Source: Nemertoderma westbladi
Taxonomy: Eukaryota; Animalia; Xenacoelomorpha
Assembly: GCA_032718475.1 (NCBI GenBank)
Contig: JAUCBJ010001865.1
Span: 1-64,000 of the forward strand
Direction: 5' to 3'
Length of the DNA: 64,000 nt
Part shown: positions 16,929 through 59,999 of the stretch, one piece after another
How the letters are laid out: the number at the start of each line of letters is the position of its first letter
Position numbering within the stretch: the stretch's first letter is position 1
Made by a program: the position numbers and the translations under genes
Notes under the pieces: model-generated
What the model saw: only the letters and a program-made list of their open reading frames with translations
The model's database searches: none
What the model was told of the DNA's origin: nothing

Positions 16929-17846
16929 CGGGTGTGTTTTTTGTGAAAATATAAGGAAACCGCGGGTTTAAGTAAGCGCGCGAAGCCAATTTAAAAAATC
17001 GCCTGTGATTGGCAATTGCAGAATTGATTAATGTCACTTGGAATGCAGAACTGACGTCACAATTCGGTGCTGCCATTAAATTTAACGTTGCATCCTATGG
17101 ATTTTGATCCATTTCAACACATATTAAATCTAAATTATTTCAAACCTCATTTATATAATTGGAAAGCGGAGAGTCTTGTGCATCTTTTGGCACCTAAATT
17201 AATTATATTCAAGAAGAGGAACGTTGATAATATGCCGTTTGTAATTATTGTAAACTCATCGAATCATAAACACTTTTCGCTAAACTAGATTGAGATTCAT
17301 TTAGGTTTCATTTATTTTCAAAGTTTTATCTTTAAATAGGCCTACATTTATTTTGTGCCAGAATATTTTCTATTATTAGCCACAGGCAATTTGGTCTGGT
17401 GCTGGTGGTGACTTTCGCACCATACAATGCTTAGGTTAAGGTTCTATGGAAGCTTGGATAGAGAAGCACTGTCATTGTCCACAGTACTTTAATAGCAACC
17501 GTTAATGTACAATCCTTCAACCTTCAAAAAGTCGATTTAATGAGAACCAATGGAAACTTGGCAAACGGATGATGGTGGGAGAACAGACATTCGGCTTAAA
17601 GCTTAAAACAAAATCGTTAATTTTACATTACTGTACACAACGATTCAATGTATTAAGTTAAGCTTTTGCAGATGTCATCAGTGATGTAATCAATATACAT
17701 GGGTGTGAATAAATGTTTCAAATTTGTTATATCTTTATATCCATAGAGCCAGAACAAAACAAATGAAAAATTATCATTACGAGAAAAACTGAATAAAACC
17801 TTCTCATTTGTTTTACCTCTGATATTTTACAACTGTAATGTTGTAT

Positions 17847-19343
17847 ACCTGCCGAACTCCAAAGAAGCATTAAAAGCATGTCCAATAATAAAGCGAGTGG
17901 ATTAGATGAAATCCCAGCGGAGGTATGGAAAACCGGAGTGCTAAATAGACCATTATTGAATGTTTGCAACCGGATGTTAAAAGGGGAAAAGCCACCACCA
18001 ATTTGGACTAAAGGTCAACTAAAGCCCCTCCCCAAGAAAGGAGACCTCGGCATACCAACAAACTATCGTGGGATCTGTCTGCTTGTGGTAGCTGCCAAAA
18101 TATACAATAAAATGATTCTATATAGGATTAGGCCTCACATAGAGAAACTACTGCGTAAGAGCCAAAACGGATTTCGACCAAGTAGATCAACAATAGCTCA
18201 GATACTTGCACTACGGAGACTGATTGAAGGAATTAAGTCAAAGAATCTCCCCGCAGTCATGACTTTTGTGGACTTCAAGAAGGCATTCGACTCCATCCAT
18301 AGAGGTAAAATGCTTGAAATCCTAAAAGCTTATGGAATACCAGAAGTAATTGTTGCTGGCATTGGATTGTTATATTGTGACACAGAAGCGCAGGTACTCT
18401 CACCAGATGGTGAAACTGAGTTTTTCTCAATCCTGGCTGGCGTACTGCAAGGTGACACATTAGCACCATTACTATTTGTAATTGTGATGGATTACGCAAT
18501 GAGGACGGCCACAAAGGGTGAAGATCTGGGATTCACACTTCAAGAACGCAGAAGTAGTAGATATCCGGCAACTACAGTCACAGACACCGACTTTACGGAT
18601 GACATCGCCCTGCTCTCTAATACGCTAGCAGATGCACAGCTTCTACTAAATAAAGTGGAGAGGGCTGCTAAGGAGGTTGGATTGCATATAAATGCTACCA
18701 AGACCGAATTCATGACCTTTAATGTTGATGGAAACTTGACAACCATTGATAATAATCAACTAAGGGAGGTAGATGACTTCCAGTACCTTGGATCGCGGAT
18801 AGAGAGTAGCAAAAAGGACATAGAAGTTAGGAAAGCAAAGGCTTGGGTAGCTCTATCAAAAATGGATACCATCTGGAAATCAGATCTCTCCAGGCACCTG
18901 AAGACCAAGTTCTTTCGAGCCACAGTGGAAAGTGTATTTTTATACGGGGGTGAGACCTGGACACTGACTAAATCACTTGAACAACGAATTGATGGTTGCT
19001 ACACAAGACTACTAAGGGCAGCCCTAAACATCAGCTGGAGACAACACATGACAAACGCCGCGCTTTATGGTACAATACCACCTGTATCAACCACCCTCCG
19101 TGAACGCAGATTAAGATTCAGTGGGCACTGCTGGCGAAGTAAAGACGAGGTCATACCAGATCTACTTTTCTGGCAACCAACTCATGGAAAGCGTAGTCGT
19201 GGACGACCTGCCATAACATATATAGATCAACTTGAAAGGGATACTGAACTTGGAAGAAACGAAATTGCGACAACTATGGAGAATCGGGAAGCCTGGAAGG
19301 ATCTCATTTCCACTGTCCGAGTTCGCTCGACCTAGTAGTAGTA
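17847..19343 (+). mobile_element. 5'-truncated RTE LINE with open RT frame (485-aa ORF 17878-19335)
   Basis: RT motifs as in the first copy, with FTDD. The stop codon runs into a (TAG)n tail. TSD gtaatgttgtat at 17835-17846 and 19344-19355. Confidence 0.92.
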
Positions 19344-31312: not shown

Positions 31313-32511
31313 CTGCGATAGCAAAAAAATAAAATTTAATAAAACACTACATAATTTCCAATTCGCTGCCGATTATTTTACAGGTGGATAAATTTAATGG
31401 GAGTATGGGCTACCTACGCTAGTAATAAGATAGTACTACTAGTAGTACTTAATACTACATATATTTAAGGTAACTCACTAGACCCTTTTATACTGCGCAT
31501 TGGGCGTAGTAAATTCTAAACTAAATTGTCAATTCAGGGAAAGTGGCAGGTTACTGTGGCACGTTATTCTAACAAAAACAATAAACTGAAGGCAATAGAA
31601 CAGGTTAGAGTTTTATTTTTGAGAGTAATCGGTTCTAATTTGTGTCGCTTTTCCCCTAGAGGGAGATTAATTTTGATTGCGTCGAAAGGCCCCCCCTGTC
31701 TTATTTTGTACCAAAATTAATAGGTAATAAATTTTTTGATAGTATAATACCTGAGCACATCAATACCCATTACTCAGTTTTAAAGAATCTTCACCCATAC
31801 AACTAATTTTTAATTAGAAAGATATACATAAGGCAGATTCCCGAAACAGAGATAAAGTGACAGTTACAAGCTGTCTGCATCGAATAGTAGAGGACTTCTT
31901 CAGGTACGTATATATATATTACAGTATTTACCGAAACGACAGTAGCATGACAGGCAGACTAATTAGATCCAAAAAAATTAATAAAAAGCTCAAAGTAAGG
32001 TGTAGGACAAAAATTAAACCATTAAATATAATTACAGGCCCTCAACACACCACCCTTGAGTGGACTGTGGACATCTTGGTGAAGAAAAATTAACGCGAGT
32101 TCTGTTTGCATATTTGAGTAAGGTTTGGGGCCCATTGTCATAAAAATAAAAAACGAAAATATTTTGTGGACCCCTTTTAAAATAATTAAATAAAAAAAAT
32201 AAAATAATTAAATTATTAACTAATATTAATCAAATATTAATTCCATTAATGATAAATGAAAGTACTTATTACTTATTCTGTTACGTTTGTAATGTTCCCT
32301 AGAGTGGAAAAAATGTTTGACAAGAATAATTGGAGGCGCCCATTTGTAATTAATTAATAACTAAATAATTAAATAATATTAATAATATTACTTCCATTTA
32401 AACTTAATTAACATTGAAAATACATAAAGCCCAATGTGTCAATGTTGCTGCATTTGCTGCATCTTAAACATTGAATGAAAAACACGTTTTTGTCAACCTG
32501 TAATAATATGC

Positions 32512-33793
32512 AAACCCAAACAACGCCCTGGCTCCTAAACCAAACAACGCCCTGGCTCCTAAACCAAACAACGCCCTGGCTCCTAAACCAAACAACGCCC
32601 TGGCTCCTAAACCAAACCACGCCCTGGCTCCTAAACCAAACCACGCCCTGGCTCCTAAACCAAACAACACCCTGGCTCCTAAATCAAACAACGCCCTGGC
32701 TCCTAAACCAAACAACGCCCTGGCTCCTAAACCAAACAACACCCTGGCTCCTAAACCAAACAACGCCCTGGCTCCTAAACCAAACAACGCCCTGGCTCCT
32801 AAACCAAACAACGCCCTGGCTCCTAAACCAAACAACGCCCTGGCTCCTAAACCAAACAACGCCCTGGCTCCTAAACCAAACAACGCCCTGGCTCCTAAAC
32901 CAAACAACGCCCTGGCTCCTAAACCAAACAACGCCCTGGCTCCTAAACCAAACAACACCCTGGCTCCTAAACCAAACAACGCCCTGGCTCCTAAACCAAA
33001 CAACGCCCTGGCTCCTAAACCAAACAACGCCCTGGCTCCTAAACCAAACAACGCCCTGGCTCCTAAACCAAACAACGCCCTGGCTCCTAAACCAAACAAC
33101 GCCCTGGCTCCTAAACCAAACAACGCCCTGGCTCATAAACCAAACAACGCCCTGGCTCCTAAACCAAACAACGCCCTGGCTCCTAAACCAAACAACACCC
33201 TGGCTCCTAAATCAAACAACGCCCTGGCTCCTAAACCAAACAACGCCCTGGCTTCTAAACCAAACAACACCCTGGCTCCTAAACCAAACAACGCCCTGGC
33301 TCCTAAACCAAACAACACCCTGGCTCCTAAACCAAACAACGCCCTGGCTCCTAAACCAAACAACGCCATGGCTCCTAAACCAAACAACACCCTGGCTCCT
33401 AAACCAAACAACGCCCTGGCTCCTAAACCAAACAACGCCCTGGCTCCTAAACCAAACAACGCCCTGGCTCCTAAACCAAACAACACCCTGGCTCCTAAAC
33501 CAAACAACGCCCTGGCTCCTAAACCAAACAACGCCCTGGCTCCTAAACCAAACAACGCCCTGGCTCCTAAACCAAACAACGCCCTGGCTCCTAAACCAAA
33601 CAACGCCCTGGCTCCTAAACCAAACAACGCCCTGGCTCCTAAACCAAACAACGCCCTGGCTCCTAAACCAAACAACGCCCTGGCTCCTAAACCAAACAAC
33701 GCCCTGGCTCCTAAACCAAACAACACCCTGGCTCCTAAACCAAACAACGCCTTGGCTCCTAAACCAAACAACACCCAACCTTCTAACCAAAAC
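32512..33793. repeat. 24-bp minisatellite, about 53 copies
   Basis: Unit aaaccaaacaacgccctggctcct. Confidence 0.97.
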
Positions 33794-34105
33794 AATTCAA
33801 TTCAATTCAATTATGATATTATTTATTATATATATTTATTATTTATAATTTGTATTATTTATTATAATACTACAGACTCAGTCAGTCAGTATCAGTATAC
33901 TCGTTATTAATATATATTTCAAAAATTGTAATTATACTTTAAATTCATTAATAATAATTCGTTTTAAAAAAATGACAGAAAGGTTTTAAAATCATTTACA
34001 AATATTGTTGACCCTGACCCACCCCCAAATAGTGGCAATACGCAAAGGTTTCGCCTACTACCTGGCTAGCCCCACGTTTGAAACATCGGATCTAATTTTG
34101 CTTGC

Positions 34106-34606
34106 ATTGGAACTAAATTCGTATCCATTGGAACTAAATTCGCATCCATTGGAACTAAGTTCGCATCCATTGGAACTAAGTTCGCATCCATTGGAACTAA
34201 GTTCGCATCCATTGGAACTAAGTTCGCATCCATTGGAACTAAATTCGCATTCATTGGAACTAAGTTCGTTTTGATATTCTGGGATTGGAACTAAGTTCGT
34301 TTTGATATTCTGGGATTGGAACTAAGTTCGTTTTGATATTCTGGGATTGGAACTAAGTTCGTTTTGATATTCTGGGATTGGAACTAAGTTCGTTTTGATA
34401 TTCTGGGATTGGAACTAAGTTCGCCCCGATTGGAACTAAGTTCGCTTTATAAAATTTATTTTGGAACTAAATTCTTTTCAATTGGAATTAAGTTCGCATT
34501 TGAAAATGTGCGATTGGAACTAAGTTCGTGCTACCCATTGGAACTAAGTTCGTTTTGATATTCTGGGATTGGAACTAAGTTCGCCTCGATTGGAACTAAA
34601 TTCGTG
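34106..34606. repeat. Compound minisatellite (21-bp and 31-bp units sharing attggaactaagttcg)
   Basis: attggaactaagttcgcatcc about 7 times, then attggaactaagttcgttttgatattctggg about 5 times, then degenerate copies. Confidence 0.9.
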
Positions 34607-34795
34607 CTACCTATATCAATTTGGTGTTATGGCCAGCTCTAGTTTAACCAGGGCAAGTCTATATACAAGCATAATAATATTATATAAAGCAAAAAAGTTG
34701 GCCAGAATGTAATTATGCTAAGTAATATAATTCAATATTATATATACATTATTATTATTACTATTACGTTTTTCATTAATTTAATTAAATTTTTC

Positions 34796-36715
34796 TATAG
34801 AATTATATTCCCTAAATGCCGTGGATTTTCAAAATTTTATTTTATTCGAATTAACTTGTTAAAAGATTACTTTGAGTCCTCATTTGTATTGCTATTTCTA
34901 TTTGTACGCCTATTATTCAAGTGGTTCAGTAGCTCAGTCGGTAGAGCGTTGGAAATTATATATGTAGTAGGTATTGAGTTCGAATCCTAGTAAGTGCGAA
35001 TTATTTTTTGTGCAGAATTTCAACTCATTTAAATTGACCGCTACAAATTAAATTGCATTTGTCTGTACCTAGATTAGCCAATGAGACTGTAGTTATTAGA
35101 TTGTAACCAATGTCGTGCAAATTATATATTAGCTGGACCAATAGCTATCTTTAAAAACCTGTTAGAACCTATAGAACAATCGAGAATTTTCTCGATTGAT
35201 TGCGGCACAAATTTGGTATATGAAGGTGCGATTTGTTCATTAGTTATCTAATCAATCACTCACTTATCTTCACTCTCTCTTAACTACTTCTATTCAGAAT
35301 ACATTGTTTATTGTATTATAGTTATTGTTTGATTTTGTAATAAAAGTTAGAAATACTTGTCACATCAGCCTTTTCTATCTGTTTTACCATGATTCACTAC
35401 GGTGAACACTCTTAGGAACAGGATGGCCGGATAGAGATCGGGCCGCAGCAATGAACGGGAACATCAAGGGAATGTAGACAGGAGACAACCCGCAATACCA
35501 CCTTAGTTATTCGCCCATCGCCTGAAAGGTTAGACAGCGTTCGACGCCTTGCTACCTAAGCGTAAGACCAAAGATCAAAGGTAGAAGTAGTGACACGCTG
35601 TAAGCCTAAAATTACATCTTAGGGACTGTACTGTCTTAATTCAGGAAAAAACCACAGTAGACCTTCACATTCCTACGGGGGGGGGGGGGGGGAGAGCGCA
35701 GGCAGAGATACTAGTACGCAGATAGGACGTAGGCACACCGGTACGAAGCATACACATTGGTAGGGTGCAGCAAACTGTACGCCTAACTCTTGCTAAGTGC
35801 AGGTGCGTCTGTGACTATTTGTAGTACAACGGTGTCCATTGCATTAGAACTTGTAGGCTAGGAGGGTTGCTGTGTTTCACCTGAATTAGGATTGTACCGT
35901 TCAGGCGGTAGGGCAGTTTACGACTAGGCGCAAATAAATCGAGGCTATTAGGGATATACTAACATCTACCGTGTCCCCGCCAACGTCCTGATAGGAAGTT
36001 ACCCAGCCTACCTAGGTGACTAAAATTCTAGATAGGACGCCAGGATAGCTATTAGTAACAGTACGCCTACTGTAGTAAACTAACACATTTCTTCTTAGTA
36101 TTAGGGACCTGGTAAATTAAAAATTGCCGAATTCTGGGCGTAGCATTAACCTTATGCCTGAATTTGAGTCCTGGAAATACGCAAGAGGGGAAGGAACCTT
36201 ATTATTCGTGAGTATTGGACCTACAAGTTGCAAAATTAGAATATTCGTAAAATGCACACCGTACCCAGTAATTATATATGTGAAGGAGCAAAACTGCTTT
36301 GACTGTTCAGAATTAACACACGCGCGTTAGAAATTATTTACACCTCAAAATATATAAAAATTAACTTTCGTCCTTACTGTGCTTTGCCCGCTAGTTAGAC
36401 ATCTCCAAATCTCTGCCTCTGTACCTAGCTAGCGTCCCTTTTGCCCAACCATATAAATCACACCGCGGCAAAGTATACGAGCCCTTTAGTCCGTCAGTGA
36501 GTCAGCCTGATTTTAGGATTCGCTGCGCGGGATTTTGTTTTATCGAAGTTTGTCTGCTCATAGACTGTTTTCTGCCTCACCGGTTATAAGAGATCGATAC
36601 TGCAATATATTCGCTTACTTAGAGTTTACTGTTTTGGTGAGAAGGTCGGATTTATGATTTGATTCACAAACTTTACAGTAGGATATTGCAGGTATTGTTA
36701 CCGTCTCTTCGAATA
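34796..36715 (+). repeat. 5' LTR (1920 bp)
   Basis: Runs tatagaattat...ctcttcgaata; matches the 3' LTR except for about 5 substitutions seen by eye and the G-run length (16 vs 22). Confidence 0.95.
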
Positions 36716-37526
36716 GTAGGAATGTGTTTTACTGAACTACGGTTCGGTAGGACTAAAGTTATTTGAAAATTTTGTATTTTGAGGTAAAAGTTTATATTTG
36801 ATTAGCTAAGTGCTAATTTTTTGAAATAAAATTTGATTTGAACCGCGTGTAAAATATTTTTGGAATTGAATACCGGTGTTTAAAAGGGTTTAAATACCAT
36901 ATTGTACCGGTACAAAATTTTCGTAAAAGTAAAACCTAACTCTTTTGTTTTTCAGGATTCAGAACTCATTTCTAGACTGTAACGGGAGCAAGACCGTGTT
37001 TAGCAAGTTTGGGAGATAGATAACCCAACAACTTTGGTTGGGAAAATCGCGCTTCGTCCGCAACGCTGAAAACGGAAAGGTTCACGTCCGGTTTGTATCT
37101 GGGAATCTGTTTTTCTGGAGAATTATTGGAGTGGGTGAGTTTGAAAAGTTGCATAAATAAGTTAGGCATTACCGTATTAGTTAAAATTATTGTGGGTTCC
37201 ACTGTCTCAAGTATTTATGCATTCCGTACGATTTCTTTGTTCATTGCTGAATTAGTCCGTATTATTGTATTTAATTTACCTTTTGATAACGCATATCGTT
37301 ATCCGATTTATTTGTTATAAAATTGGCCGCTAGGCTAATTTTATTATATACTTATTCCGTGACATTTATTTGCTGTAAAATTGGCCGCATAGGCTAATTT
37401 TATCCATCTGCTATAAAATCGGCCGGTAGGCTAATTTTATATGACTGTAATTAGTACCGTTTAGATATAAATACGGTAAACTTGATACTTTGACACTCAC
37501 ATTTTACTTGACTTACAACTACCGAA

Positions 37527-39616
37527 ATGAGTGACAAACAAGACTATACGAAAAATACACAAACCGACTATGACTCATGTGACAGAGATAAGTCAGCAGC
37601 GGAAGAACAACAGGGGAAGACTCGCGAGCCTACCGAACCTACACCGTGTGCGTCACCAGTACATCCAACGGGAGTACCGGATGCCGTAGTACGAGGCAAC
37701 GGCAGGACCGAGGACTTTCTAACTGTTCCGCAACCTAGATACAGGGAAACGGAGATGGTAAGTTCAGTAGGAAGCCAGGAGAGTGTGGTTAGAAGCGTCG
37801 GCGGATACATGGCGCATATTACCAGGAGTATTGGAGAAGGCCAACGCATATTAGACGAGTTGACCGCTCCGATGTCTCGGTTTGAGTTCTACACCCTCCA
37901 GGTTAGAGTACAAAGTAGAGTACATAAGTCCGTAGATAACCTAATTGGTCTACAAGATCTAGCTAGACAGAGACAGGACATGGATACTCAACTTAGAATC
38001 CTCGAGAAACTAATGATCGCTAGAGAGAAACTGATTCAGTTTAAGTCGACGATTAGGCAGATACAACAGGAACAAGCGGACCAGTTGTTAGGTGAGTCAG
38101 TTTCGGACGAATTATTGCAGCCCGAGGAAGAACAGGAACTGTACCGACTAGATGGACAATTAAAACACCTGACGGACCACTTACGTATGTGCGGCGAGGA
38201 TGTCGGAGATTGGGAAACCGTGCCGGAGGCTACGAGGGAAACTTCACTCGCACAAATCGAATCGGCACCGGGAATACTAAATCAACCATTGGTAAGTATT
38301 CGTAGCGAAATCTGCGAGGGAAGTATGGTCACGTCAGAAGTTGCTCGACAACAACAAGAATTCTACCGACAACGACGAGAAATGGAGGAACAAGCTCAAC
38401 TTCTAGTGATGCAGGCAGCAGTAGAGGAAGAGAAGCTACGCGTTGCGAATGTAGCGAGAATCTCTCATCTACAGGAACAAGCTGAATTAGAAGCAGCTGA
38501 AGTAGAAAGGTTAGAGGTAGACATTGCCCAACAAACGGCAGCGGTTGATTTAGCGCGACGAAACGCAGCGGCCGAGTTAGAGCGACAAACGGCAGCGGCG
38601 GAATTAGAGCGACAAACGGCAGCGGCGGAATTAGAGCGAGAAAGGTTAGTTTCGGAAGCACGGGCCGAAATGAAAACACGGCAAATAAAAGCTCAATCCG
38701 CTATACGACAAGTGGAGTTTGAGGCGCAACGACAACAAACGGAACAACGAGAGAAGACAGCTAAACTTCATTTCGAACTCGAGAAGAAGGCGAGAGAATT
38801 AGCCGAAGCCAAGGAAAATCTGGATCTTCTAGCCCGCGATAGATCGATGAGATCTCGTGACGGACATGATTTGGACCAGTTAGAGGTAAGACATCGCCAA
38901 ATTCAGGAACGGAAGAAGGAAGGAAGCGTAGGAGCACCCGGACGGGAACGACAATTAGTAAAAGACTTGTGTCAATGATTCCACAAGTAACTCCTATGTT
39001 TGCACCAATTATGACTAAGAAACCTGTTTCGATTGCGGGTAGTAGTGATATTTCTCCTATCCATGGTGCGACGGAACACAGGTTGGTTATTCCGGACAAA
39101 TTCATACCGTCAAGAGCAACGTCGTCGCCTATTTTGAAAGTCAAGGTAAGTAACCCACCGATTACAGATCGTAGTAGTTTGTTGACTGGACCTGCACTAC
39201 TGACGACAAAACAGGTGAGTCCACCTTTGACACCTAAACCGGTTACGCACTACGAATACCCAATGACGTTTCGACCTACAAGGCCAGTTCAGTTTACATC
39301 GCAATCTACGACTTCGAGGAAGACTTGTGAGCCTACCGAACAACGGAGACCAGTGGATACGCGACCGTTCAACCAGTTTACATCGCAATCTACGACTTCG
39401 AGGAAGACTTGTGAGCCTACCGAACAACGGAGACCAGTGGACGATGTTCCGAAACAAACATTAGAATTCATACGACGCAACGGACGCGAGCACTTCGACC
39501 ACCATATCCAGATGATAGTAGTACTTCGAGCGAATCGGATTACCCGAAACGCGAGGTATTTAGAACAGGGGCGGCCGATGAATATAAACGCGAGCGTTCA
39601 GACAACTCCTTTGTAG
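37527..39616 (+). CDS. N-terminal Gag region (coiled-coil, then Ser/Thr/Pro-rich), split by frameshifts
   Basis: ORF 37527-38978 is Glu/Gln/Ala/Arg-rich with AAAELERQT repeats. It overlaps 38969-39616 in another frame, and the third (gag-pol) frame is open from 39415. Confidence 0.65.
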
Positions 39617-42600
39617 ACAATCCTCCACAGAATACACCAACACAGAAGGCGTTACAACCAACGGACGCAATCAGTACACAACAGTTCGCCGACATCCTGC
39701 GACCAGTTGTTAACAAGTTGGCTCAGATCGAGGAGCGTCTGGAGGAAGTTCAAACCGATAGTTCGAGGAACACTGAATTCGAACACAATAGACACCCGAA
39801 GGAACCACAAAGACCGGTACCTTCAAAACACACATCGTATCAGGGAAAAGCGCCAAGAAGGGAGAACATCAACCAGATTACCAACCAAGGACGCGAAACT
39901 CTGAACGTTGCCGAGGAGATAGCGAAATTCGCAGCTAGACAAGGACTACCGGTGCAACAACCACCTAAGTTTTCCGGTAGCTCAAAACACTGGCACACTT
40001 TCGTAGACTATATCGAATCTCAGATCGCCGTGTGCGCTTTTACATCACGGGAGAAGTTTAATTACCTGCTTCAAACATTGTCGGGAGAACCTAAACGTTT
40101 GGCGGAGACCTTCGTTGGTGTACCGGACGCCTTCGAACTAGCGTACGATCGTTTAACTTCGATCTACGGAGGTACAGTCAGCATGGCCAGGTCAGTGATA
40201 GAGGAACTCTGTAAGGGAGGGGCTATTACTAAACCCGTCGACTTATTGAAACTGGCTGACGAAATAAAGAACGCTATCACTACTTTGAGATCCATTGGAC
40301 AACTTGACTACGGGAATACCCCTACAGTCCTATTAAAGATCATAGGACGACTCCACCATCGACTTCGTCGGGAGTGGAGGAAGATTGAATACCAGCGGGA
40401 AGAGCGGGGTGGATTCTTAAAACTGGAAGATGTGTACCTTTTGATATCCAGGGAAGCAGTGGTAGAAACTCGATCCAACTACACTGACCAGCACATCGTA
40501 GCAGAAGGAATCACCTTGCCATCCTCAAACCGACAAAAACCCCAGACAACATCCACCAAGACGGCCACTTACGCCACATCGACGGAATCACGACAATTCT
40601 CGGACGGTAGTAGGGTATCTGCGCCCATTGGGATAAAACAGACTAGACAGCAACTCAGTGCAGACTTCAGCGGCTGCCAATACTGCGAGCATTTAGGCAA
40701 GCGGTATATCGGTCACAAGTTGAGAGGTTGTCGACAGTTTCGCGAGTTAAACTCGGAAGAACGACGGCTGCAGATACGGCCATTGGACTCTTGTTGGCGG
40801 TGTACGCGACACGGACACGTCCGCAAAGATTGCCCAAATACCGACACTTGTCCATCCTGTGGACGCAACCATGACGGTCTGCTCCACACAGACAGCCACA
40901 CGCCGACAAAACGCTTCGCCAGGGAACACCCGGAAGCAGCAGCGAAATGTAATACGGCCTACAAGAATCAAGAATCGAAAACGACTCCAACTTTCGTGAC
41001 ACATATTAAGGATTGCTTCTCAGAACAATCCGGATCGTCGGACGAAGAGTCAGAAGACGACGACGTATATTCCGATGGAGACGAACAACCATCGATCGCG
41101 CTTCTGACGACTGACCAACTAAAGGGATTCAGCGTAATTCCGATTAAGATTACTGGCACAAAAGGGAGCAAGAGAATCTACGCTATCCTGGATTCAGCCT
41201 CATCTCACAGCTACGTGGATGAGCAGATAGCTGATGTAGTGACGGATCTCAGACAAGGTAAGCGCGTCAGTTACACCGTAAGTAGTATGCACGGACAACG
41301 TGCAATACCAGTGACACGAGTTAAGTTGGACTTAGACACTCTTCTTCCAAAATCGCAACACAGCGAAAAGGAGAGGTCTTTGTTACCCTTTAAGGATTTG
41401 ACTTTTGCGGCCACCAAGGACTTTAGTAACCTACTAGGTCCTGTCCCAGAACAATCCTTGGAGGACCGTAAGTATTTCAGACACCTTGGTGTACCTGAAT
41501 GTCCTGTCAATTATAGATCGGTAGCCATGCTGATCGGGACAGACCAATTCAACCTACATCAAGTGTGGGAAACCAGACCATCGGCAGTCGTAGCGGGAAA
41601 CGCATACGCCTGTAGAACGCCGATAGGGTGGTATACTCGAGCGCCTGTGCGCACACTGGACATAAGTGACGAGGAAGACGATGTACAAAGTACATGTAGT
41701 TTATTAACTACAAATTCAATTCATTCCTTTTCACACGACGTGGACCATACTACCTTACATACAAAACATGACAGACGTGTAACTAGTATGATAAGTCACA
41801 AGGAGCAGCTAATCCACCAGGTGAGTTTAGAACTTGGGGAGAAGACGAGTCAGCCAGAGATTCCATCGACGACAGATGATAACGCCGGAAGGCTTGCGAG
41901 TCTACCTACACCAATAACCTCAACAATGCCCGTCGATATCGATGATGACGCGTTGAGAAATCATCAAGTGGAACAAGCTGTATTGGACAAAGAATTAACG
42001 GAGAAGACTATCAGGTGGTTAGAACAAGATACAGCTGAACCTGGTAGCTACGAACCATGTATGTCGGAACAGGAGAAACAATCTTTGAAGATCATGGAAG
42101 ATACTATCCGCCAGACGAAAGACGGACATTATGAGGTAGGGATGTTATGGCGTAGCCAAAGTCCTAAACTCATAAATAACTATCCACTAGCTTTAAGACG
42201 TTTACACTCGATACGACAACGTCTATTAAAGGACGAGAAAGCCCATCTGCAGTATAACACTCAGATGGAGACGTATTTGTCCAAGGGATACGCTATCCGA
42301 ATGACTAACCCAGAGATAGTAACTGACCAGACATACTACTTGCCACATCATTTCGTGAGACACCCCGACAAACCAGACAAAGTACGTGTAGTCAATGACT
42401 ATGCGGCTCTGTTTGAGGGAATGTCCCTCAATAGCGAGTTGATGGATGGACCAAACATGAATAATTATCTTATGGGGGTGATTATGCGCTTCCGTCAGCG
42501 TCAAGTAGCCTTTACTTGCGACGTCGAAGCTATGTTTCACCAAGTGAGAGCGTTAGAGCAAGACAGAGACAGTTTGAGGTTCCTCTGGTATCCGGAAGGA

Positions 42601-45600
42601 GACTTAAGTCTACCACCGGCGACTTACCAAATGCAAGTTCGCGTTTTCGGTGCCAGAGACAGCCCAAACTGTACAATGTATGCCCTAAAGCAAGCCGCTA
42701 GGGATCAGAAACACCTGTATGACCCAGAGATAATTAAGATTGTGGAACGTGACTTTTACGTCGACGACGGTTTACAGAGTTGCGACACAGTAGAACGTGC
42801 TACAACAGTAGCACATCAATTACGGGACTGCTTAGCGGGCGGAGGTTTTAACCTCACCAAATTCGCCTCAAACAGTGCCGAATTAGTAGACTCATTCGGA
42901 ACGACTGAGCGTGGAGGTGGTGACATAGACCTAGAGTTCGAACCACTACCGACGACCAAGGTGTTGGGGCTCTTTTGGGACCCAAACACGGACAACTTTC
43001 GAGTGAAGGTAAGACTGGACAGTCAAGAAAACACACTGACAAAGAGATCATGCTTGTCAAAATTGAGCCGATTGTTCGATCCATTAGGATTCATCAGTCC
43101 AATAATACTGCAAGCCCGCATTTATATGCGCAGTATTTGGAAGGATGGACTGACATGGGACGAGCCGATCTCATCAGACCAAGTGGACTTATGGAAGACC
43201 TGGGAGGCAGAATTATCTTCGCTAGAGGATTATTCCATACCCAGAGTCTACTTTCCATTACAAACAACATTTCCTGACAGCTTGGAATTACACTGTTTTT
43301 CCGACGCCAGTGACAACGGTTTTGGTGTGGCAGCGTACTTGCGCAGACAAGTAGACTCAGAAGAATTCGATGTTTCGCTCATTACTTCTAAGGCAAAAAC
43401 AATGCCTACTAAGTATATGACGACACCACGAGCTGAGCTACAAGCCGCAACCCTGTCAACCACCATCGTGAACCTTATACAGACGGAACTACAGTCAAGT
43501 TTACAGATATTTTATTGGACTGACGCGATGTTGGTTTTATTTTACATAAACAACGACACACTTGAATTCAAGACATTCGTAGCTAACCGTCGCGCAGAAA
43601 TTCTAGACCGTTCAATAAAGGAAGATTGGCGACATTGTCCCGGACCACAAAACCCAGCCGATATTGCGTCGCGAGGAATGATGCCTGAGGAATTCTGTAA
43701 ACCGGAGAACAAAGAATTTTGGCAACACGGACCCCAATTCTTGCAGAAATCGACACAAGATTGGCCACCGTTATACGACAGCAAGTCTAACACCATCCCT
43801 AAAGACGCGGAAATTAAAAAACCAAAAAAGGGGAAGGCAAAGAAAAAGACGACGGCGGCTAAACTCAAGAAAAAACCGAAGGCGAAATGGAAAGATATAA
43901 CTTCAAAGGTCAAGAACGGAAGACTTGCGAGCCTTTCTACACCAGACATATCGCCAGACATATCGCCAGACGGTCAAACAGACACGTTACTAGACGGTCA
44001 ACCAGACGTTTTGCCAGACATGTCACAAAATGTTCTACCAGACACTAGTGACATATTGACAAATAGTAAAGCCGCAGTTTCCCTATTGGAGCGGCCTTGT
44101 ATTGACAAACTACCAATTTTGACACACTTGAGCAACCATAAGCACGGTGAAACCTCATGTATTACAGATGTGGGTAGTACCTACGCTAATGTAAATACAG
44201 GTGTTACTCTGCGCTCAAGAGACATACCAAACTTGCAACCTATGGTGAGACCCGGGATTAATATCGGCAGAAAATTAAGTTTACCGAAACCCACTGACCC
44301 CATAGAGTTCAAACCACCATTAACGATCGACTTACAAAGTACTGACAATCAAGGTATGAAGACGAAGAAGGACAAATTACTTGTAGACCCGGACGGATCA
44401 ACAGTCAACAAGGGAATACTTACCGGCGGACCCGTGGGCCCTTCTAGTAAATCAAAACCTTCCAAATTCTTTGACTTACCTGATGACGTCACAAATACTC
44501 ACGTCGACCGTATTGTAAACTTAACAGACTCTTGGACAAACGCTTGCCGAAAATTAGCGTGGATTGTACGTTTTGTACAATACGTTAAAGGCAAACGAGA
44601 CTTTACACGTCGACTTACATTGACTGAGATTGACAGGTGTGAGATTAAATTAATTCGCCATTACCAACTGCGATATTTCGCGCGCGAATTCACATCTATA
44701 AATCAAGGTCAACCAATCAAGTCGTCACCAATATTGAGTTGGAGTCCGATAATTTATAATGGCTTAATTTGTCATAAATCTCGGCTTCAGAACATTGACT
44801 TTAACACAAACTTTAGATACCCAATAATAATACCACAGCATCACGAACTACAATGTGCAATGATACTGGACGCACATTTACATCTAAAACACGCTGGAAG
44901 ACACCACTGTCTTTCCTACTTACGTACAAGATTTGTATTAATTAGACCCAGTAAAGCGTTAAGTTCAGTGACACGTACGTGTATTATTTGTAAAAAGGTA
45001 CATTCTAGAATAGGTACCCAAGAAATGAGTGAACTTCCACAAGCACGACTTCAAGCATTCAGACCACCTTTTACAGAGACTGGAATTGATTGCTTTGGTC
45101 CCATACATACGAAACGTGGACGTATACTAGTAAAACGCTGGGGACTGATTTTCACATGTATGTCCAGTAGGGCAGTTCATATTGAACGTGTGATGGATCT
45201 TTCCACCAACGCGTTTATACTAGCATTGCGGCGATTTATCGCTAGACGCGGACTAGTGAAATGCTTGTACTCAGACCAAGGGATAAACTTTGTTGGTGCT
45301 CGAAATGAGATTGCTAGAGCCTTTAAGAAATTAGATCATGATCAAATCTCAAACGAACTACGTCCTCACAAGATTGTTTGGAAGTTTAATCCTCCAGATA
45401 GTCCATGGAGAGGCGGAGTCTGGGAGAGATTGATTAGATCTATAAAGACAGCCATGGCAAAGGTCATTCCAGTAAACCACATATTGACAGACGACCAACT
45501 GACAACACTGTTTGTTGAAATCGAGGCAATACTAAATACTAGACCAATAGTATTAGTACCCGATGACAAACAATCTCAGTTTGCTTTGACACCGGCACAC

Positions 45601-46011
45601 CTGCTTATGCAGGCACCGACCACATTGACGCCTATTTCTATTCCAATAGAAGGCGATAGCTACGGTAGAAAAGCGTGGAAAATCACGCAACTACTAGCTA
45701 ACAAATTCTGGGAAATATGGCAAAACCATTATTTGCCCTCTATTTCTGCCAGAACAAACTGGTAAAATAACACCCGCGCATTAAAGCCGGGAGATCACGT
45801 GCTGTTAGCGGAAGTGAATCTAAAAAGACGCTTCTGGATAACAGGTGTAATTTTAGCCACACATCCATCTATGGATGGAGTGACAAGAACTGTAACGGTA
45901 CGGACAATTGACGGTCGTACAGTAGACAGACCGACTCAACGTCTCGTACTTCTTGAAGAGACTCGTAACGAGTCTGGAGACTACAAATCTCCAACTAATA
46001 TTAGTAAATAA
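39415..46011 (+). CDS. BEL/Pao Gag-Pol polyprotein with a premature stop at 45763-45765
   Basis: Gag PKFSG..W..F region; CCHC knuckles CWRCTRHGHVRKDC and CPSCGRNHDGLLH; protease ILDSAS; RT YYLPHH, DVEAMFHQV, FYVDD; RNase H LHCFSDAS, PRAELQAA, NPADIASRG; integrase HLHLKH...CIIC, GIDCFGP, SDQG, GGVWERLI. The C-terminal LKPGDHVLL...DGVTRTVTVRT continues in frame after TAA. Confidence 0.93.
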
Positions 46012-46672: not shown

Positions 46673-49600
46673 ATGGAGAAAGGGATACAAGGAGAGCCGA
46701 GATGGGGATATGATATCCAAGAGGAGGCAGCAGCGCCATTCGAAAGATTTGGAGCCAAGGACTACACTATATTTGGTATAAAAGAATTATCAGAAAGTAC
46801 TGCGAAACTCGCGAGAACTAAATATGACTCAAATGTATTAAAGAGAAGACAAAATGCATTAAACGAAAGAATCGAAAGTTTGCGCAAAACCTTCAACGAA
46901 CTTTACCCGTACGACGCTTTGTGTGATACGGGAGACATTAGCAAAGACCCCGATACTGAAATTAGTCGTTTGTATCATACCATGCAATACCTGAAGGCGC
47001 ACGAACCTATGCCCGCGGTAAGAGATGAATTTGATGGAATGCATCTTTACAGACGAACTCGAGGGGACGATAGAGAAACCAAGGAAGCATTTTCAGTTTA
47101 TAAACTTTATTATCAATGCGGTTCTTGTATGCGTGAACAACGAAATGCGATTCCGATGCGTTATTCCGATACGATCGCATTTCGTTGTTCACGCATACAA
47201 GAACCGCATTGATAATAAAGTTTATAAACTGAAAATGCTTCCTTGGTTTCTCTATCGTCCCCTCGAGTTCGTCTGTAAAGATGCATTCCATCAAATTCAT
47301 CTCTTACCGCGGGCATAGGTTCGTGCGCCTTCAGGTATTGCATGGTATGATACAAACGACTAATTTCAGTATCGGGGTCTTTGCTAATGTCTCCCGTATC
47401 ACACAAAGCGTCGTACGGGTAATAAGGAAAATCCCGAACCGATATTGGCGAGGTGTTCGAACCATCAACAACTACGCTACCAGGAAGGAGGGTATCCTTT
47501 ATCGAATCCATATCATTCGTTTGCTATGACCGGACCAAAGGCGGGAGAAACTGTCGTTTACCCACCTAAGGTTGTTGAACCCGATGTATTTGAACTTACG
47601 CTGGAAGAGGCGAATCAGTCAACCCGCGAAAAGAAAGAAGCTCTTAGCCTATACAGAGCCTACAAGGCTTTCGAGAAAGGTGAGATGGAAGAATGGGGCG
47701 GAAGACTCGCGAGCCTACCTTACCATTGGACGTCACACGATCAAACTCCAGCTAAGGAGATGACACCGGAAGTTTTCGAGAGCATAAACTTTGCTCAAAA
47801 CGTTATTCAGAGACTACAGATTGCATCCCCGGAGAGGACAAGAGAAATGCAACCATATAGTACTTCAACTACGAAACCATTGAGTACGACACTCAATTTT
47901 CCTATTAGTATACCAGTCCGACAGGATACGACGTACGAAATACCCATCGTGGATCATCCAGAAATCATTTCAAACTTGGAGTTTCTTCCTGCAGTTGTTT
48001 TCAGCGATATGAGTAAGATATATGATTTACGTAGACATATTACTCAAAAGGTCGTGTACAACGTTCCACCTCATATTCAAGACTTTAAGGAACTGGATAG
48101 AGCTGGTGCCGATATAGCTCCGAGTAATTTGAAAGGATATTTAACCAAGACGATTCGTTTATGGATTGGAACCGGAACCTTCGAGTCGGATACAGATATT
48201 GCCGCGGATTGGCGAGGTAAGGTTATTCGTTTCGAAGATGATAAGGACATAGAGAAGATTTGGCAACCTTCGGAAGAATTGTTGGATGAATGGAATAGGA
48301 CGTTTAGATCGTTTCAGGAAAATGGTTACATGTTTTACGATAACGAGGGCGGCAGTCATCAACAGAGTTTGACTTCTAAGACTATACAAATTAGAGCGGC
48401 GGACGGAGTCCTGCACGTTTTCAGTAGACAGAGGAGCGACAAACGAATGCCGATACCTCCAGCGAATACAAAGCGACACCATCTTATCACTGACATAGTA
48501 AAGAAGATGGACCAAGCTTGTAATATCGACGCTAGAATGCTACCGAAGATGGTAAGAAACATGATTTTAGATAAAACTGTTGTAAAGATTGGATCAGGAG
48601 TAAGGGAGGACTTAATTAGCGACTTCGCCGGCATGACGGACAGCGATGACCGACTACCGACACCTTACGTCGACACTCGACCTCTTATTTTGTGGTCTAT
48701 AGAACAGGGATATTTTCGTGAGTATAATACTCAGAAGACTGGAACTGGATACATTTCCTACCTGTTATTCAATTGGGATTATAAGGAAAGTAAGAGAACC
48801 AAGTATATTGAGACTTATGGAGAAGGTGATACTCCAGATATGAGTGAGTTTGAATCACAGCTTAAATGGAGAGGATGCGTGTATTGGGCTATTACGTCAC
48901 CTCCAAGAGCGGTCTTACAATATTATTTAGCAATAGAGTCGTCAGTGAATGTTTGCCTAATCGCCGACATTGTGTCTCGGACTCTCAAAAGACATCCACT
49001 TTGTCTCGGAGAAGATCATACGTTCTACATGGAAGGGAGAATTCATACCGACGTGTTTAGACGATTCCTTGAACCCTTCTACAACTCCGACGCTCAGTGT
49101 AATGCCTTTACTCGAGCAGGATTTAGTATATTTCGAGACGTGTATCTTCGCTGTGCGGGATCTCTTATCGAAAGACCATCTATGTTTACATTGTTACCCT
49201 ATGAAGGAGAACGTATCGTGGAGATTACGGATGAATCACGGCAGACGCGCGCGCCTATCGGTCACCTTGGTGATGATTTCGAAGTAACTACTACGATCAC
49301 TGACGATCCTTTAGAGGAACTTCTTGAGATAGAAAGGAACCTCCCGAAGAAATCTCAGACGGAGATTCGACAACTTGAAGCAACAGATGCTATAGTTTGT
49401 ATACAACCTTCAGAAACCTACCAACCCATAGATCCAGATGATTACGATTATAGTGTGGGAGGAAGCGCTCGACCGATTGGAGATCTTATATACGAACGAG
49501 TGTGGTACCCTGCCAATACGATGTGTGGTAAATGTGGCGTCGCTGGACATCATATGACCAAGTGCAGTGGAAAGCACATTACTACGACTCAGCTAATCTG

Positions 49601-50459
49601 TGGATGGTGTGGAGATCAAGGGTCTCATACCTTTTATACTTGCTGGAGATTTATGGCTCAATGTACTTATTGCAATATAAAGGGACATCGAGCATCTGAA
49701 TGCCAACTAAGAGACATACCTTATGAACACGAATCTGTAAAACTCGTGAGAAAATTATTCGATGAGTGGGAAGATTTAGCCGACGAACATGTATCGGCAC
49801 AAAGAAGACGGTTTCCGATGAGGGCGCATCTTGGATTTTGGGCGGTAAATCCCCAAACGATGATGTCGGAAGGATACATCTCCGCTATGCCCCAATATGA
49901 CGAACTTATCGAGGTAGTCGATATTTTGCCCCACGACAGTGGATTCCGAGTAGTGCGCGAGTATCTGTTACAGATTCACCCGGATAACAAAAACACGTGG
50001 AATTTTCAGAAAGTCGTTAATCGCATCACGTATGGTGAATTCGATCGTTTCCGAACTGAAAAGCGGAATAAAGGAGCTTGGTTAACCGTCGCATGGGCGT
50101 ACCGAGCCGCGTTTTACCACAAACGTATACGAGCGAGCGTATTCGAGGAAGAGGAGGTCCTAGAGGCGACAAATATACCAGCCACTCCGGTTGCGCCGTC
50201 TGCACGTCACCCTCGGGAGGACGGACAGGGTAGGATCATACGGGTCCAGAAAGTGGGCCAACAGTTAAAGAAGTCTATTAATATAGAAGAACGCAAGGGA
50301 GCTGAGCCGACCATTCGAATTACTCGGGATACGGTATCGCTTCCTAGAGAACCAATAGGAGGATCGGGACATACACCAGCTGATCAAAGGGGGCGCAAGC
50401 TACTCTTGGGTCTGCGTCGTCCGCTTCCCGCGCGTTCCCAGACGTTCTACCAACTGTAG
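46673..50459 (+). CDS. Accessory ORF: WRN/EXD-like DEDD 3'-5' exonuclease fold plus three CCHC zinc knuckles; interrupted by a 259-bp insertion
   Basis: ExoI-like FYDNEG (about 48333-48350), LPKMVRNMILDKTVVKIGSGVREDL (ExoII-like), YVDT, QYYLAIE. Knuckles CGKCGVAGHHMTKC, CGWCGDQGSHTFYTC and CTYCNIKGHRASEC (49524-49703). Deleting 47164-47422 joins ORF 46673 in frame to ORF 47445-50459. Confidence 0.75.
46903..47422. repeat. Perfect inverted duplication, 249-bp arms, 22-nt loop
   Basis: 46903-47151 is the reverse complement of 47174-47422; the same peptides appear on both strands in the ORF track. Confidence 0.95.
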
Positions 50460-51548
50460 TGACAACTGATCGGTCACGAGGAATCGGTCGAGGTTTTGGG
50501 ATGCCAAATAGACGAATTTGCGAGGAAATAGTCGCACCGTCTCTCAACGTCCAAACGAAACCAGTGACTCGCCCCACGAGTCCCATATCGCGAGCAAAGT
50601 CACCTGTGCGCAGTTTTCGAGGACGCGGCAGGGCTCGATCAACTAAGCGATAAAAGGGAGGGCAAGGGTGGACGGAAGACTCGTGAGCCTTTCTTATGAT
50701 TTTGTGATTTATTTGAATTTATATTTATATTTGTGTTTATTCCGAACTTAAGCAATTTGTATTGTTCCGAATTTATGAAATTTAGAAAGTTTATATTTAG
50801 AAGGGACTTATATTTGAAAGATTTATGTTTCATATTTGAGATGCAAAGGAGTTTATATTATTCTAAACTTATGCAGTTTATATTTATATTTAGTAAAGAT
50901 TTATATTTGTAAGAATTTATATTTTATATTTGTAATTATTCCGAACTTATGCAATTTATATTGTTCCGAATACTATGCAATTTATATCTTATAAGCAGTA
51001 TTTGTATTTACAGTGAAATAGAAAGTAAGAGTAGATGGAAGACTCGTGTGCCTTTCTTATAGTTTCATTTGTAAAGTGTTATATTTTGTATTTAGAAAGT
51101 TTTATAGTTAGAAAGTTTTGTACTTAGAAAGACTCATATTTGTAATTATTCCGAACTTATGCAATCTACATTTAGGCACGAAAGTATTTGTAATTATTTG
51201 AATTTATGCAATATTTGAGATGCAATAGTAGATGGAAGACTCGCGAGCCTTTCTTATGATTTTCATTTATTTGTATTTGTAATTGTTTGAATTTATGCAA
51301 TATTGAGATGCAATAGATTTATATTGGTGAATTTAATTTAGATTTATATTGTACTTACTCAGTAAAGCCTTAACTACGTAAAGTTTGAATTTGTAATTAT
51401 TTTGTATCGAATCATTATGTAGAAAGGAAGTATTGTTTGAAATTTAATTGTAAATATGTAAGTACGCCCTAAGTATTCTATAGTTTGATTGATTATTGGT
51501 GAAAACCGTATATTTTATGCACGATAATATCCTGTATTCATGGAGCGG

Positions 51549-53474
51549 TATAGAATTATATTCCCTAAATGCCGTGGATTTTCAAAATTTTATTTTATTC
51601 GAATTAACTTGTTAAAAGATTACTTTGAGTCCTCATTTGTATTGCTATTTCTATTTGTACGCCTATTATTCAAGTGGTTCAGTAGCTCAGTCGGTAGAGC
51701 GTTGGAAATTATATATGTAGTAGGTATTGAGTTCGAATCCTAGTAAGTGCGAATTATTTTTTGTGCAGAATTTCAACTCATTTAAATTGACCGCTACAAA
51801 TTAAATTGCATTTGTCTGTACCTAGATTAGCCAATGAGACTGTAGTTATTAGATTGTAACCAATGTCGTGCAAATTATATATTAGCTGGACCAATAGCTA
51901 TCTTTAAAAACCTGTTAGAACCTATAGAACAATCGAGAATTTTCTCGATTGATTGCGGCACAAATTTGGTATATAAAGGTGCGATTTGTTCATTAGTTAT
52001 CTAATCAATCACTCACTTATCTTCACTCTCTCTTAACTACTTCTATTCAGAATACATTGTTTATTGTATTATAGTTATTGTTTGATTTTGTAATAAAAGT
52101 TAGAAATACTTGTCACATCAGCCTTTTCTATCTGTTTTACCATGATTCACTACGGTGAACACTCTTAGGAACAGGATGGCCGGCTAGAGATCGGGCCGCA
52201 GCAATGAACGGGAACATCAAGGGAATGTAGACAGGAGACAACCCGCAATACCACCTTAGTTATTCGCCCATCGCCTGAAAGGTTAGACAGCGTTTGACGC
52301 CTTGCTACCTAAGCGTAAGACCAAAGATCAAAGGTAGAAGTAGTGACACGCTGTAAGCCTAAAATTACATCTTAGGGACTGTACTGTCTTAATTCAGGAA
52401 AAAACCACAGTAGACCTTCACATTCCTACGGGGGGGGGGGGGGGGGGGGGGAGAGCGCAGGCAGAGATACTAGTACGCAGATAGGACGTAGGCACACCGG
52501 TACGAAGCATACACATTGGTAGGGTGCAGCAAACTGTACGCCTAACTCTTGCTAAGTGCAGGTGCGTCTGTGACTATTTGTAGTACAACGGTGTCCATTG
52601 CATTAGAACTTGTAGGCTAGGAGGGTTGCTGTGTTTCACCTGAATTAGGATTGTACCGTTCAGGCGGTAGGGCAGTTTACTACTAGGCGCAAATAAATCG
52701 AGGCTATTAGGGATATACTAACATCTACCGTGTCCCCGCCAACGTCCTGATAGGAAGTTACCCAGCCTACCTAGGTGACTAAAATTCTAGATAGGACGCC
52801 AGGATAGCTATTAGTAACAGTACGCCTACTGTAGTAAACTAACACATTTCTTCTTAGTATTAGGGACCTGGTAAATTAAAAATTGCCGAATTCTGGGCGT
52901 AGCATTAACCTTATGCCTGAATTTGAGTCCTGGAAATACGCAAGAGGGGAAGGAACCTTATTATTCGTGAGTATTGGACCTACAAGTTGCAAAATTAGAA
53001 TATTCGTAAAATGCACACCGTACCCAGTAATTATATATGTGAAGGAGCAAAACTGCTTTGACTGTTCAGAATTAACACACGCGCGTTAGAAATTATTTAC
53101 ACCTCAAAATATATAAAAATTAACTTTCGTCCTTACTGTGCTTTGCCCGCTAGTTAGACATCTCCAAATCTCTGCCTCTGTACCTAGCTAGCGTCCCTTT
53201 TGCCCAACCATATAAATCACACCGCGGCAAAGTATACGAGCCCTTTAGTCCGTCAGTGAGTCAGCCTGATTTTAGGATTCGCTGCGCGGGATTTTGTTTT
53301 ATCGAAGTTTGTCTGCTCGTAGACTGTTTTCTGCCTCACCGGTTATAAGAGATCGATACTGCAATATATTCGCTTACTTAGAGTTTACTGTTTTGGTGAG
53401 AAGGTCGGATTTATGATTTGATTCACAAACTTTACAGTAGGATATTGCAGGTATTGTTACCGTCTCTTCGAATA
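51549..53474 (+). repeat. 3' LTR (1926 bp)
   Basis: Preceded by a short purine-rich ggagcgg (PPT position) and followed by TSD ttttc. Confidence 0.95.
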
Positions 53475-54146
53475 TTTTCATAATTTAGTCGTACTTAATG
53501 TATGTTTCTTAATTACTAACAACTGATATAAAACAAATAATAATTACTGGCAAAATTACAAAAATAAAAGAAAACATGATGATTCCTGCCGGGCATTTTG
53601 CTTTCTTTCCTTAGGTAAAACAAAAAAGAGGCAGATAGGGGGCTGGGGTTGGGGGGTTGGTTGACTGTGGATGGAAACAAAATTCCTTCCGTTCCGGGGT
53701 AAAATTGACTAAAATAACAAGTGATTACTCCAAAAATGTAACAGTAACATGTTACAACGTGCCATGCAACTGTAACCTGCTCCTTTCCCTTAATTTATAA
53801 ATTAGTAACATTTAGACGATATATTAATTCGCCAAGATAGGATTTGTGCCTCTCCTGTCTCAAAATAAGACTCCCTATTATGATGAATAATTACTTTAAA
53901 ACATCAGACAGTATAATATTTTGATGGTGACATTGTGATATTAATGGTTAATATTATATAACAAATTGATGATTGAAATTGATTGATTGAAATTGATTGA
54001 TTGATAGATCTACAATAAAGTTTATAGCACTTTCTATAATTCTGGTTTTTGATATCAGATGATCGAATATTTCAATAATTTCATACAATATAAGTAACAA
54101 TTGATTTTTAGATCTTATGTAGTATTATCATTTCAATAATAATCAA

Positions 54147-59862: not shown

Positions 59863-59999
59863 GTGAGCAAATGTGATGTGCGATATAGTGGTTGGAACTC
59901 GTGAGCCGAAGTTATTGATAGAAACAACTCCGACGTTAATAGTTCTGTATCCCCGTGATCCGAAGTTGATCTTCTTCTGGCAAATACCTCCAACTGGAC
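59836..59999 (-). CDS. ADAM10: ADAM10-like exon carrying the zinc-binding HExxH motif
   Basis: ttgttcag|GT CCA...AGT CCG|gtaagt; 164 bp encoding GPVGGICQKK...INNFGSRVPTTISHITFAHELGHSLGSP. Splicing to the 31312 exon gives HELGHSLGSPHD (ADAM10: SHITFAHEVGHNFGSPHD). Confidence 0.93.

Follow-up and report, generated by a model that had tools for sequence, protein, structure and literature searches.

Minus-strand priming of LTR elements must start next to the LTR end. What primes it in an element that has no recognizable tRNA site there? The question is raised by an 18.7-kb LTR retrotransposon in a 64-kb stretch of DNA (the window, that is, the whole stretch analyzed), in which the 11 nt directly after the 5′ LTR are complementary to a segment inside the LTR. 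A sequence-only reading had proposed Tf1-like self-priming by this BEL/Pao element, with the 3′ end of the primer made at a C/poly-G boundary by RNase H or possibly by an accessory exonuclease. From comparison of sequences, we consider it probable (roughly 0.78) that the element primes reverse transcription with RNA of its own LTR and not with a tRNA. Self-priming independent of tRNA is well supported, mainly by relatives of the element; the proposed details of the primer end fared less well.

A BEL/Pao element in the window

Two features by which BEL/Pao elements are recognized were found: paired LTRs with a target site duplication, and Pol and Gag domains of BEL/Pao type in the order PR-RT-RH-IN (Table 1). 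The Gag-Pol frame matched the Pfam families Peptidase_A17 (E = 1.7e-42) and DUF1759 (E = 5.8e-11), which bears out the BEL/Pao assignment, and more weakly Integrase_H2C2 (E = 0.0013) and DUF5641 (E = 0.009). It had 3,094 homologues, with PF05380 in all 120 among the matches listed; the closest full-region relatives among these were marine-invertebrate BEL/Pao proteins with 39-44% identity. A profile search up to E = 5 found no chromodomain in the element. The copy in the window is young, and its two LTRs are 99.4% identical, differing by five substitutions and by 6 nt in the G tract. Its family is abundant, with 5,434 contigs from a single run matching 3 kb of the element.

Table 1. Coordinates of the features discussed, in positions of the window.
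Feature	Position	Strand	Remarks
Target site duplication, 5′ copy (TTTTC)	34791..34795	+	5 bp
5′ LTR	34796..36715	+	1920 nt; ends TA..TA
Candidate TATA box	35217..35224	+	perfect match in the 3′ LTR allele (51970) but not in the 5′ LTR, which has G at 35222
Candidate GT..AG intron	35529..36955	+	one contig, run X4; removes 11-mer and primer site
Predicted second helix strand	35655..35661	+	pairs with 36728-36734 past a 4x1 internal loop
Predicted self-primer segment	35666..35676	+	11 nt; exact reverse complement of 36716-36726; family allele C>T at 35668
G tract	35677..35692	+	16 nt; beyond four leading G, length and G/A content vary in the family
First AATAAA after the primer segment	35933..35938	+	+256
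Second TATA-like box	36452..36457	+	downstream of primer segment
Predicted primer binding site, GTAGGAATGTG	36716..36726	+	offset 0 from 5′ LTR end; no TGG
Two overlapping ORFs ahead of the polyprotein	37512..39616	+	488 and 248 aa; no Pfam family
BEL/Pao Gag-Pol frame	39415..45765	+	2116 aa; stops at position 31/94 of the DUF5641 profile match
Exact 249-bp inverted repeat	46903..47422	.	22-nt spacer; between two accessory ORFs
Accessory ORF	47388..50459	+	1023 aa; likely DEDDy-type 3′-5′ exonuclease with CCHC knuckles, a lead only, through homologue P0126
Candidate PPT	51540..51548	+	short purine-rich tract ahead of 3′ LTR
3′ LTR	51549..53474	+	second copy of the 11-mer at 52419-52429
Target site duplication, 3′ copy	53475..53479	+	5 bp

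Several further features of the element and its surroundings were noted. The LTRs end in TA..TA (34796, 53474) instead of the TG..CA found in the relatives L002, L003 and L008. In the relatives, the polyprotein begins at most 60 nt from the LTR, whereas two extra ORFs (37512-39616) come first here. The inverted repeat at 46903-47422 is either a genuine inverted duplication, and as such a source of hairpin RNA, or an assembly artefact. Tandem arrays lie directly to the left of the element (32464-34600), and a 39-bp satellite array occupies the right end of the window (59834-64000). An intronless transportin-1 ORF (6926-9661, 911 aa), unusual in an animal, points to a retrogene or an intron-poor host; this host gene has 68-74% identity to proteins of many animal phyla. 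An RVT_1 ORF (17839-19335, 498 aa), separate from the BEL/Pao element, is probably a fragment of a non-LTR element.

The 11-nt match

The 5-bp target duplication fixes the LTR ends, so the primer site is flush with the LTR. In the window, GTAGGAATGTG occurs only at 36716-36726 and its reverse complement only at 35666-35676 and in the 3′ LTR copy, so that the exact 11-nt complement at the LTR edge stands as described. The same holds for the adjoining poly-G of 16-22 nt, the longer tract being that of the 3′ LTR, and for the absence of TGG, none of which was found within 60 nt downstream of the 5′ LTR. An exact 11-mer complement in the LTR was found for 7 of 14,709 internal positions (4.8e-4), in agreement with the earlier estimate of about 5e-4, and in 6 of 2,451 six-offset blocks. 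With eleven offsets allowed, 3 of 100 dinucleotide shuffles reached 11 nt. The match alone is improbable (0.2-3% with several offsets) but a single element is not proof, and it is the relatives that carry the case. The element passes a published screen for self-primers as given in the accessible part of its source (at least 10 bp, 0-5 bp from the LTR; PMC6317226).

The tRNA panel available for comparison held 47 distinct sequences from another assembly, part of them bacterial and with several isotypes missing; they are not the host's. Against these non-host sequences, the comparison with tRNA 3′ ends suggested by the sequence-only reading gave a match of 2 nt at best, and the best internal match was 6 nt. 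As a positive control, the site of the BEL element L020 equalled tRNA-Lys(CTT) over 18 nt. Among nine relatives with LTR pairs, eight had no 3′-end match of more than 4 nt to the same 47 sequences. In L008, a self-matching site (6170-6190) retains 9 nt of tRNA-Lys(CTT), and by eye L006 and L011 resemble L008 in this; the likeness is possibly a relic of a tRNA-Lys site.

We rejected an element-encoded tRNA as primer: a tRNA-like stretch at 34930-34990 reached only E = 6.9 with Rfam, gave no call with ARAGORN and does not contain the 11-mer. The tRNA-like A and B boxes of this stretch within the LTR are possibly a captured SINE head or a Pol III promoter.

Relatives with contiguous and predicted splice-built matches

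The relatives comprised 13 BEL/Pao loci from a scan of prokaryote assemblies and 18 stretches from three of those assemblies. They are evidently host DNA binned into these assemblies; the bins G001-G005 (L002-L032) contain animal LTR elements and tRNA arrays, with 67 BEL/Pao matches in G004, which suggests heavy contamination by host DNA. LTR pairs were found in 7 of the 13 loci and 2 of the 18 stretches, nine in all, and the remaining loci were without a readable primer site except where a blind scan gave one. Pol identity to the window element was 34-39%.

Twelve relatives had a readable site: the outgroup L020 with its tRNA-Lys site, one with a contiguous match, nine with an exact match of 11-15 nt that spans a predicted canonical splice junction within the LTR, and one with a match of 10 of 11 nt. 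Three of the twelve (L021, L029 and L031) were selected by the pattern scan itself and do not count towards a denominator. In L002, the 320-nt LTR contains the 11-nt complement as one uninterrupted stretch (0 of 200 shuffles). In L003, L006, L009, L011, L013 and L032, exact matches of 11-12 nt run across GTAAGT/GTGAGT..YAG junctions, with controls at 0-1 of 300 each. Unspliced, the same six match over 6-8 nt only, directly after the pyrimidine-AG acceptor, and the donors sit 76-1022 nt upstream of the acceptor. L008 matches at 10 of 11 nt, with one mismatch. The blind scan covered 22 other upstream regions, six of them with less than 1.1 kb of upstream sequence; L021, L029 and L031 matched over 11-15 nt and the other 19 gave no junction match, among them L019 and L026, which belong to the clade. 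Six contiguous matches in L019 were dropped, as they arise from a long inverted repeat.

The same arrangement, with sequences specific to each family, was seen in 11 of the 12 readable relatives (one at 10/11). L011 and L032 are one family and L006 and L009 are sisters, so these 11 represent about nine independent families. Their sites lie 0-4 nt from the LTR end (8 in L013). The duplexes formed across the junction are predicted to be 2-17 kcal/mol stronger than the unspliced ones in all seven relatives compared. The predicted primer 3′ end is AC in the window element and eight relatives, ACT in two and AT in one, and it lies 1039 nt from the LTR end in the window element versus 44-232 nt in the relatives. 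Among viral contigs there were no relatives, and a metagenome scan gave one uninformative 1.3-kb locus.

A chance match in the window element is very unlikely in this light. When nine offsets are allowed, 4 of 300 control stretches do reach 11 nt against the long LTR, and a common allele of the family alters one position of the match; against this, the site is flush with the LTR, no other primer site is present, and the same pattern recurs in the 11 relatives.

Co-variation between site and LTR

In a cross matrix of the window element and the 12 relatives, 11 of the 13 elements scored 11-15 against their own LTR. Among the 156 mismatched pairs of site and LTR, two reached 11 (L011 and L032, which have the same site) and three reached 10. 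Compensatory changes, which the sequence-only reading had proposed to look for, were found twice, between the sister families L006 and L009. The last three bases of exon 1 are CAC in one and TAA in the other, the sites read GTG and TTA, and the donor context and the acceptor are common to both. On sequence grounds, these are two compensatory changes across a junction.

In the trees, a branch with 97% SH-aLRT support separated L020 from the window element and eight self-matching relatives. Both are quick trees, with three long branches removed and the protein rows halved for the second, and the window element forms a long branch whose placement is unsure.

The duplex might instead be structural, serving packaging, dimer formation or a splicing switch, with priming left to a host RNA, for instance a tRNA fragment, outside the tested set. 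We regard this as quite improbable. It draws on the origin of the tested tRNAs, which are not the host's, on the 9 nt that the L008 site has in common with tRNA-Lys(CTT), and on the one contig that suggests splicing across both sites and hence RNA-processing roles of the region (see below). But each family's distinct site tracks its own LTR and no shared host RNA, the sites lie at the very place where minus-strand priming must start, and 6 nt was the best internal tRNA match of the window element.

Variation within the family

In contigs of four runs (region 35590-35740), the sole substitution within 35655-35680 at a frequency of at least 1% was 35668 C>T. It made up 39-45% of the summed contig depth in three runs (two samples) and was absent from the fourth. 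With the base that the window has at 36724, the T allele would form a G-U pair, and the predicted duplex changes from -15.6 to -13.7 kcal/mol. The 11-mer was no quieter than its flanks, with one variable site in 11 nt versus four in 35630-35665 and none in 35590-35634. The first four G of the adjoining tract were invariant. Two runs each had a contig in which a different LTR end is joined at 36715, which hints at turnover of the LTR end next to a primer-site side that is retained.

Transcript signals and folding of the leader

From the candidate TATA box, transcription is predicted to start near 35245. For priming within one RNA, transcription would have to begin before 35666 and the poly(A) tail to be added after 35677, and the AATAAA at 35933 permits this; another AATAAA lies at 35339, upstream of the primer segment. 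One contig of run X4, a run guessed to be DNA, joins 35528 to 36956 with a good donor and acceptor and 22 nt on its short side. A primer built by splicing was rejected for the window element itself, where the best candidate was 10 nt, reached by 33 of 100 shuffles, and no joint was seen in 35590-35740.

In all nine elements for which the duplex was folded, the 11-bp helix was predicted to have a second, short helix on its upstream side, with a small bulge or loop in between. A stable stem-loop predicted at 36725-36752, directly 3′ of the primer site, competes with this second helix, and both the G tract and the 3′ stem-loop are predicted to compete with the primer helix. When the whole leader was folded, the helix had a probability of 0.47 (1161 nt) or 0.00 (1546 nt) and was never in the best structure. 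This counts against the helix, although long-range predictions of such a kind are weak. Pretzel-type pairing was marginal in the window element: for one of the two extra duplexes, 11 of 300 shuffles did as well, as did 4 of 200 control windows. In eight of eight relatives such pairing was not above the controls. The G tract may, marginally, pair with the LTR end.

What remains, then, of the label 'Tf1-like'? The principle and the 11-nt length stand. The match built by a predicted splice and the pairing that extends upstream in the relatives suggest that the primer probably does not coincide with the initial 11 nt of the transcript. A strict Tf1 mode, a sub-case of self-priming in which 35666 is the transcription start site and the RNA begins with the 11-mer, would fit the 11-nt length and the pyrimidine-A context at 35665-35671, which we take to be an initiator-like motif. 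It is nevertheless unlikely. Neither LTR allele has TATA[AT]A in the 400 nt that precede 35666, the second helix predicted for the window element and for relatives is located 5′ of the 11-mer, and the joint in the X4 contig is a weak hint, from one contig, that the RNA begins upstream of about 35507.

How the primer could be made

We propose that the LTR RNA segment would anneal to the 11 nt that follow the 5′ LTR, with both strands on one RNA molecule or on two. A cut after the final AC of the segment would free a 3′ end for the reverse transcriptase, which would copy U5 and the rest of R and then jump to the 3′ end; the sequence upstream of the cut would be restored from the 3′ LTR, as in Tf1. 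The RNA would start upstream of 35666, the primer being a longer 5′ piece and not the terminal 11-mer of Tf1. In the intron-bearing relatives, spliced RNA alone would prime and an unspliced copy would serve as template for the LTR. The roles of primer and template would thereby be split by splicing, in one RNA or across two.

If the element primes itself, we lean slightly, by analogy with Tf1, towards its own RNase H as the maker of the cut. The C/poly-G boundary did not hold up as a conserved signal: the 16 nt that follow the primer end contain 1-7 G in relatives versus 16 of 16 in the window element, and the tract is variable in the family. Being private to the window element, the poly-G and the accessory ORF cannot be a general processing signal.

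The accessory exonuclease had been put forward as a possible maker of the primer 3′ end. The ORF matched the homologue P0126 (E = 1.8e-5), which has DNA_pol_A_exo1 look-alikes at an Atlas score of 0.87, and its D-x-E, D and Y-x3-E, which we take to be DEDDy exonuclease motifs, align with motifs of P0126. The ORF itself had no exonuclease match in Pfam or PDB, its structure model had a pLDDT of 33, and a protein homologue search with it found none. As a lead only, we class the ORF as a likely DEDDy exonuclease that also carries zinc knuckles. By tblastn, it was found in none of the relatives with the shared type of primer site, whose internal regions are 4.4-6.6 kb, and so is not required for self-priming.

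A further sub-case of self-priming is possible, if doubtful: a short polyadenylated LTR transcript would anneal in trans and be trimmed by a 3′-5′ exonuclease, either of the host or the DEDDy-like ORF. In seven intron-bearing relatives, AATAAA lies 0-23 nt past the primer end, which would leave a short tail to remove; the tail in the window element is long (+256), and this element carries the exonuclease-like ORF. The TATA box at 36452 could also start genomic RNA without the 11-mer. Against trimming, no relative has the ORF, and its assignment as an exonuclease is a lead only. A 3′-5′ exonuclease would also tend to stall at the G tract that directly follows the primer. The nearness of AATAAA to the primer end in most relatives could likewise suggest that the element's RNA is cleaved for polyadenylation at the primer end. 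Unless a non-canonical signal is used, this is extremely improbable, since AATAAA is downstream or absent and lies within 45 nt upstream in none of the 13 elements, which puts it on the wrong side for cleavage.

To return to priming by the element's own LTR RNA, the proposed primer is contiguous, or 'ready-made', in the window element, and most relatives appear to assemble theirs by splicing an LTR intron. The contiguous form would most likely have arisen through loss of the LTR intron by copying of spliced RNA at its 3′ end, and L002 could have arisen likewise. We cautiously favor a wider picture. In a large animal BEL/Pao clade, an element-made primer would have replaced the tRNA, its 11-nt end normally assembled by splicing of an LTR intron, so that the spliceosome would license reverse transcription and the primer and genome RNAs would be separated. 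The window element would be a derived intron-free form with a purine tract and an exonuclease that processes a long precursor.

Comparison with known systems

BEL/Pao replication has been described as tRNA-primed and poorly understood (PMC8742986), and self-priming has been placed in Tf1/sushi, Tcn1 and TAR in the accessible parts of PMC6317226 and PMC7175516. The literature searched, with subscription papers, Repbase reports and supplements outside its scope, contained no report of BEL/Pao self-priming or of splice-built primers; this includes the accessible parts of PMC4600332, PMC5341516, PMC2774666, PMC3601003 and PMC13524379. Term look-ups in the accessible parts of PMC3118150, PMC6238403 and PMC554778 gave no mention of a primer site.

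If our reading is true, a third superfamily self-primes, and most of its sampled members do so by a splice-built primer that contiguous-match screens miss. Such elements would be freed from tRNA supply and from silencing by tRNA fragments, and their mobility would be tied to host splicing. It would also explain BEL/Pao elements annotated without a primer site. The window element would be the simpler, contiguous case.

Tf1, Tf2, Tj1 and the Tf1/sushi chromoviruses likewise lack a tRNA site, and the site next to their 5′ LTR is complementary to LTR RNA over 11 nt. They are Ty3/gypsy elements; the Pol of the window element is BEL/Pao, so it is not a member of Tf1/sushi despite the same principle. 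The RNase H of Tf1 cuts between bases 11 and 12 (PMC7175516, accessible part). The Tf1 primer is the 5′ end of the RNA, whereas the primer segment here is apparently internal. Tf1 has downstream 'pretzel' duplexes (PMC10085805, accessible part), while the extra helix of the window element is upstream of the primer. In most of its relatives, unlike Tf1, a predicted splice has to join two pieces before the primer sequence is complete.

Self-priming of plant Tcn1 (Ty3/gypsy) and TAR/Houba/Osr-1 (Ty1/copia) was inferred from contiguous LTR complements of at least 10 bp (PMC6317226, accessible part). These belong to other superfamilies, and the blastn screen described there is blind to primers that span a junction. 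The bdelloid LTR retrotransposons Juno and Vesta carry an ORF3 after pol that is likely a DEDDy 3′-5′ exonuclease (PMC5408684, accessible part). It resembles the accessory ORF of the window element as an extra ORF after pol, but is without a shown link to priming.

The Belpaoviridae, as defined by ICTV, have genomes of 4.2-10 kb, LTRs that measure 0.2-1.2 kb and a primer site of 18 nt for tRNA-Arg or tRNA-Gly of the host (PMC8742986). The window element shares with them its Pol domains, its LTRs and an animal host. It differs in the lack of such a tRNA site (no TGG and a 3′-end match of at most 2 nt to the non-host panel), in its 1.9-kb LTRs with TA..TA ends and in its length of 18.7 kb. By its Pol, it is a variant BEL/Pao lineage and not a typical member.
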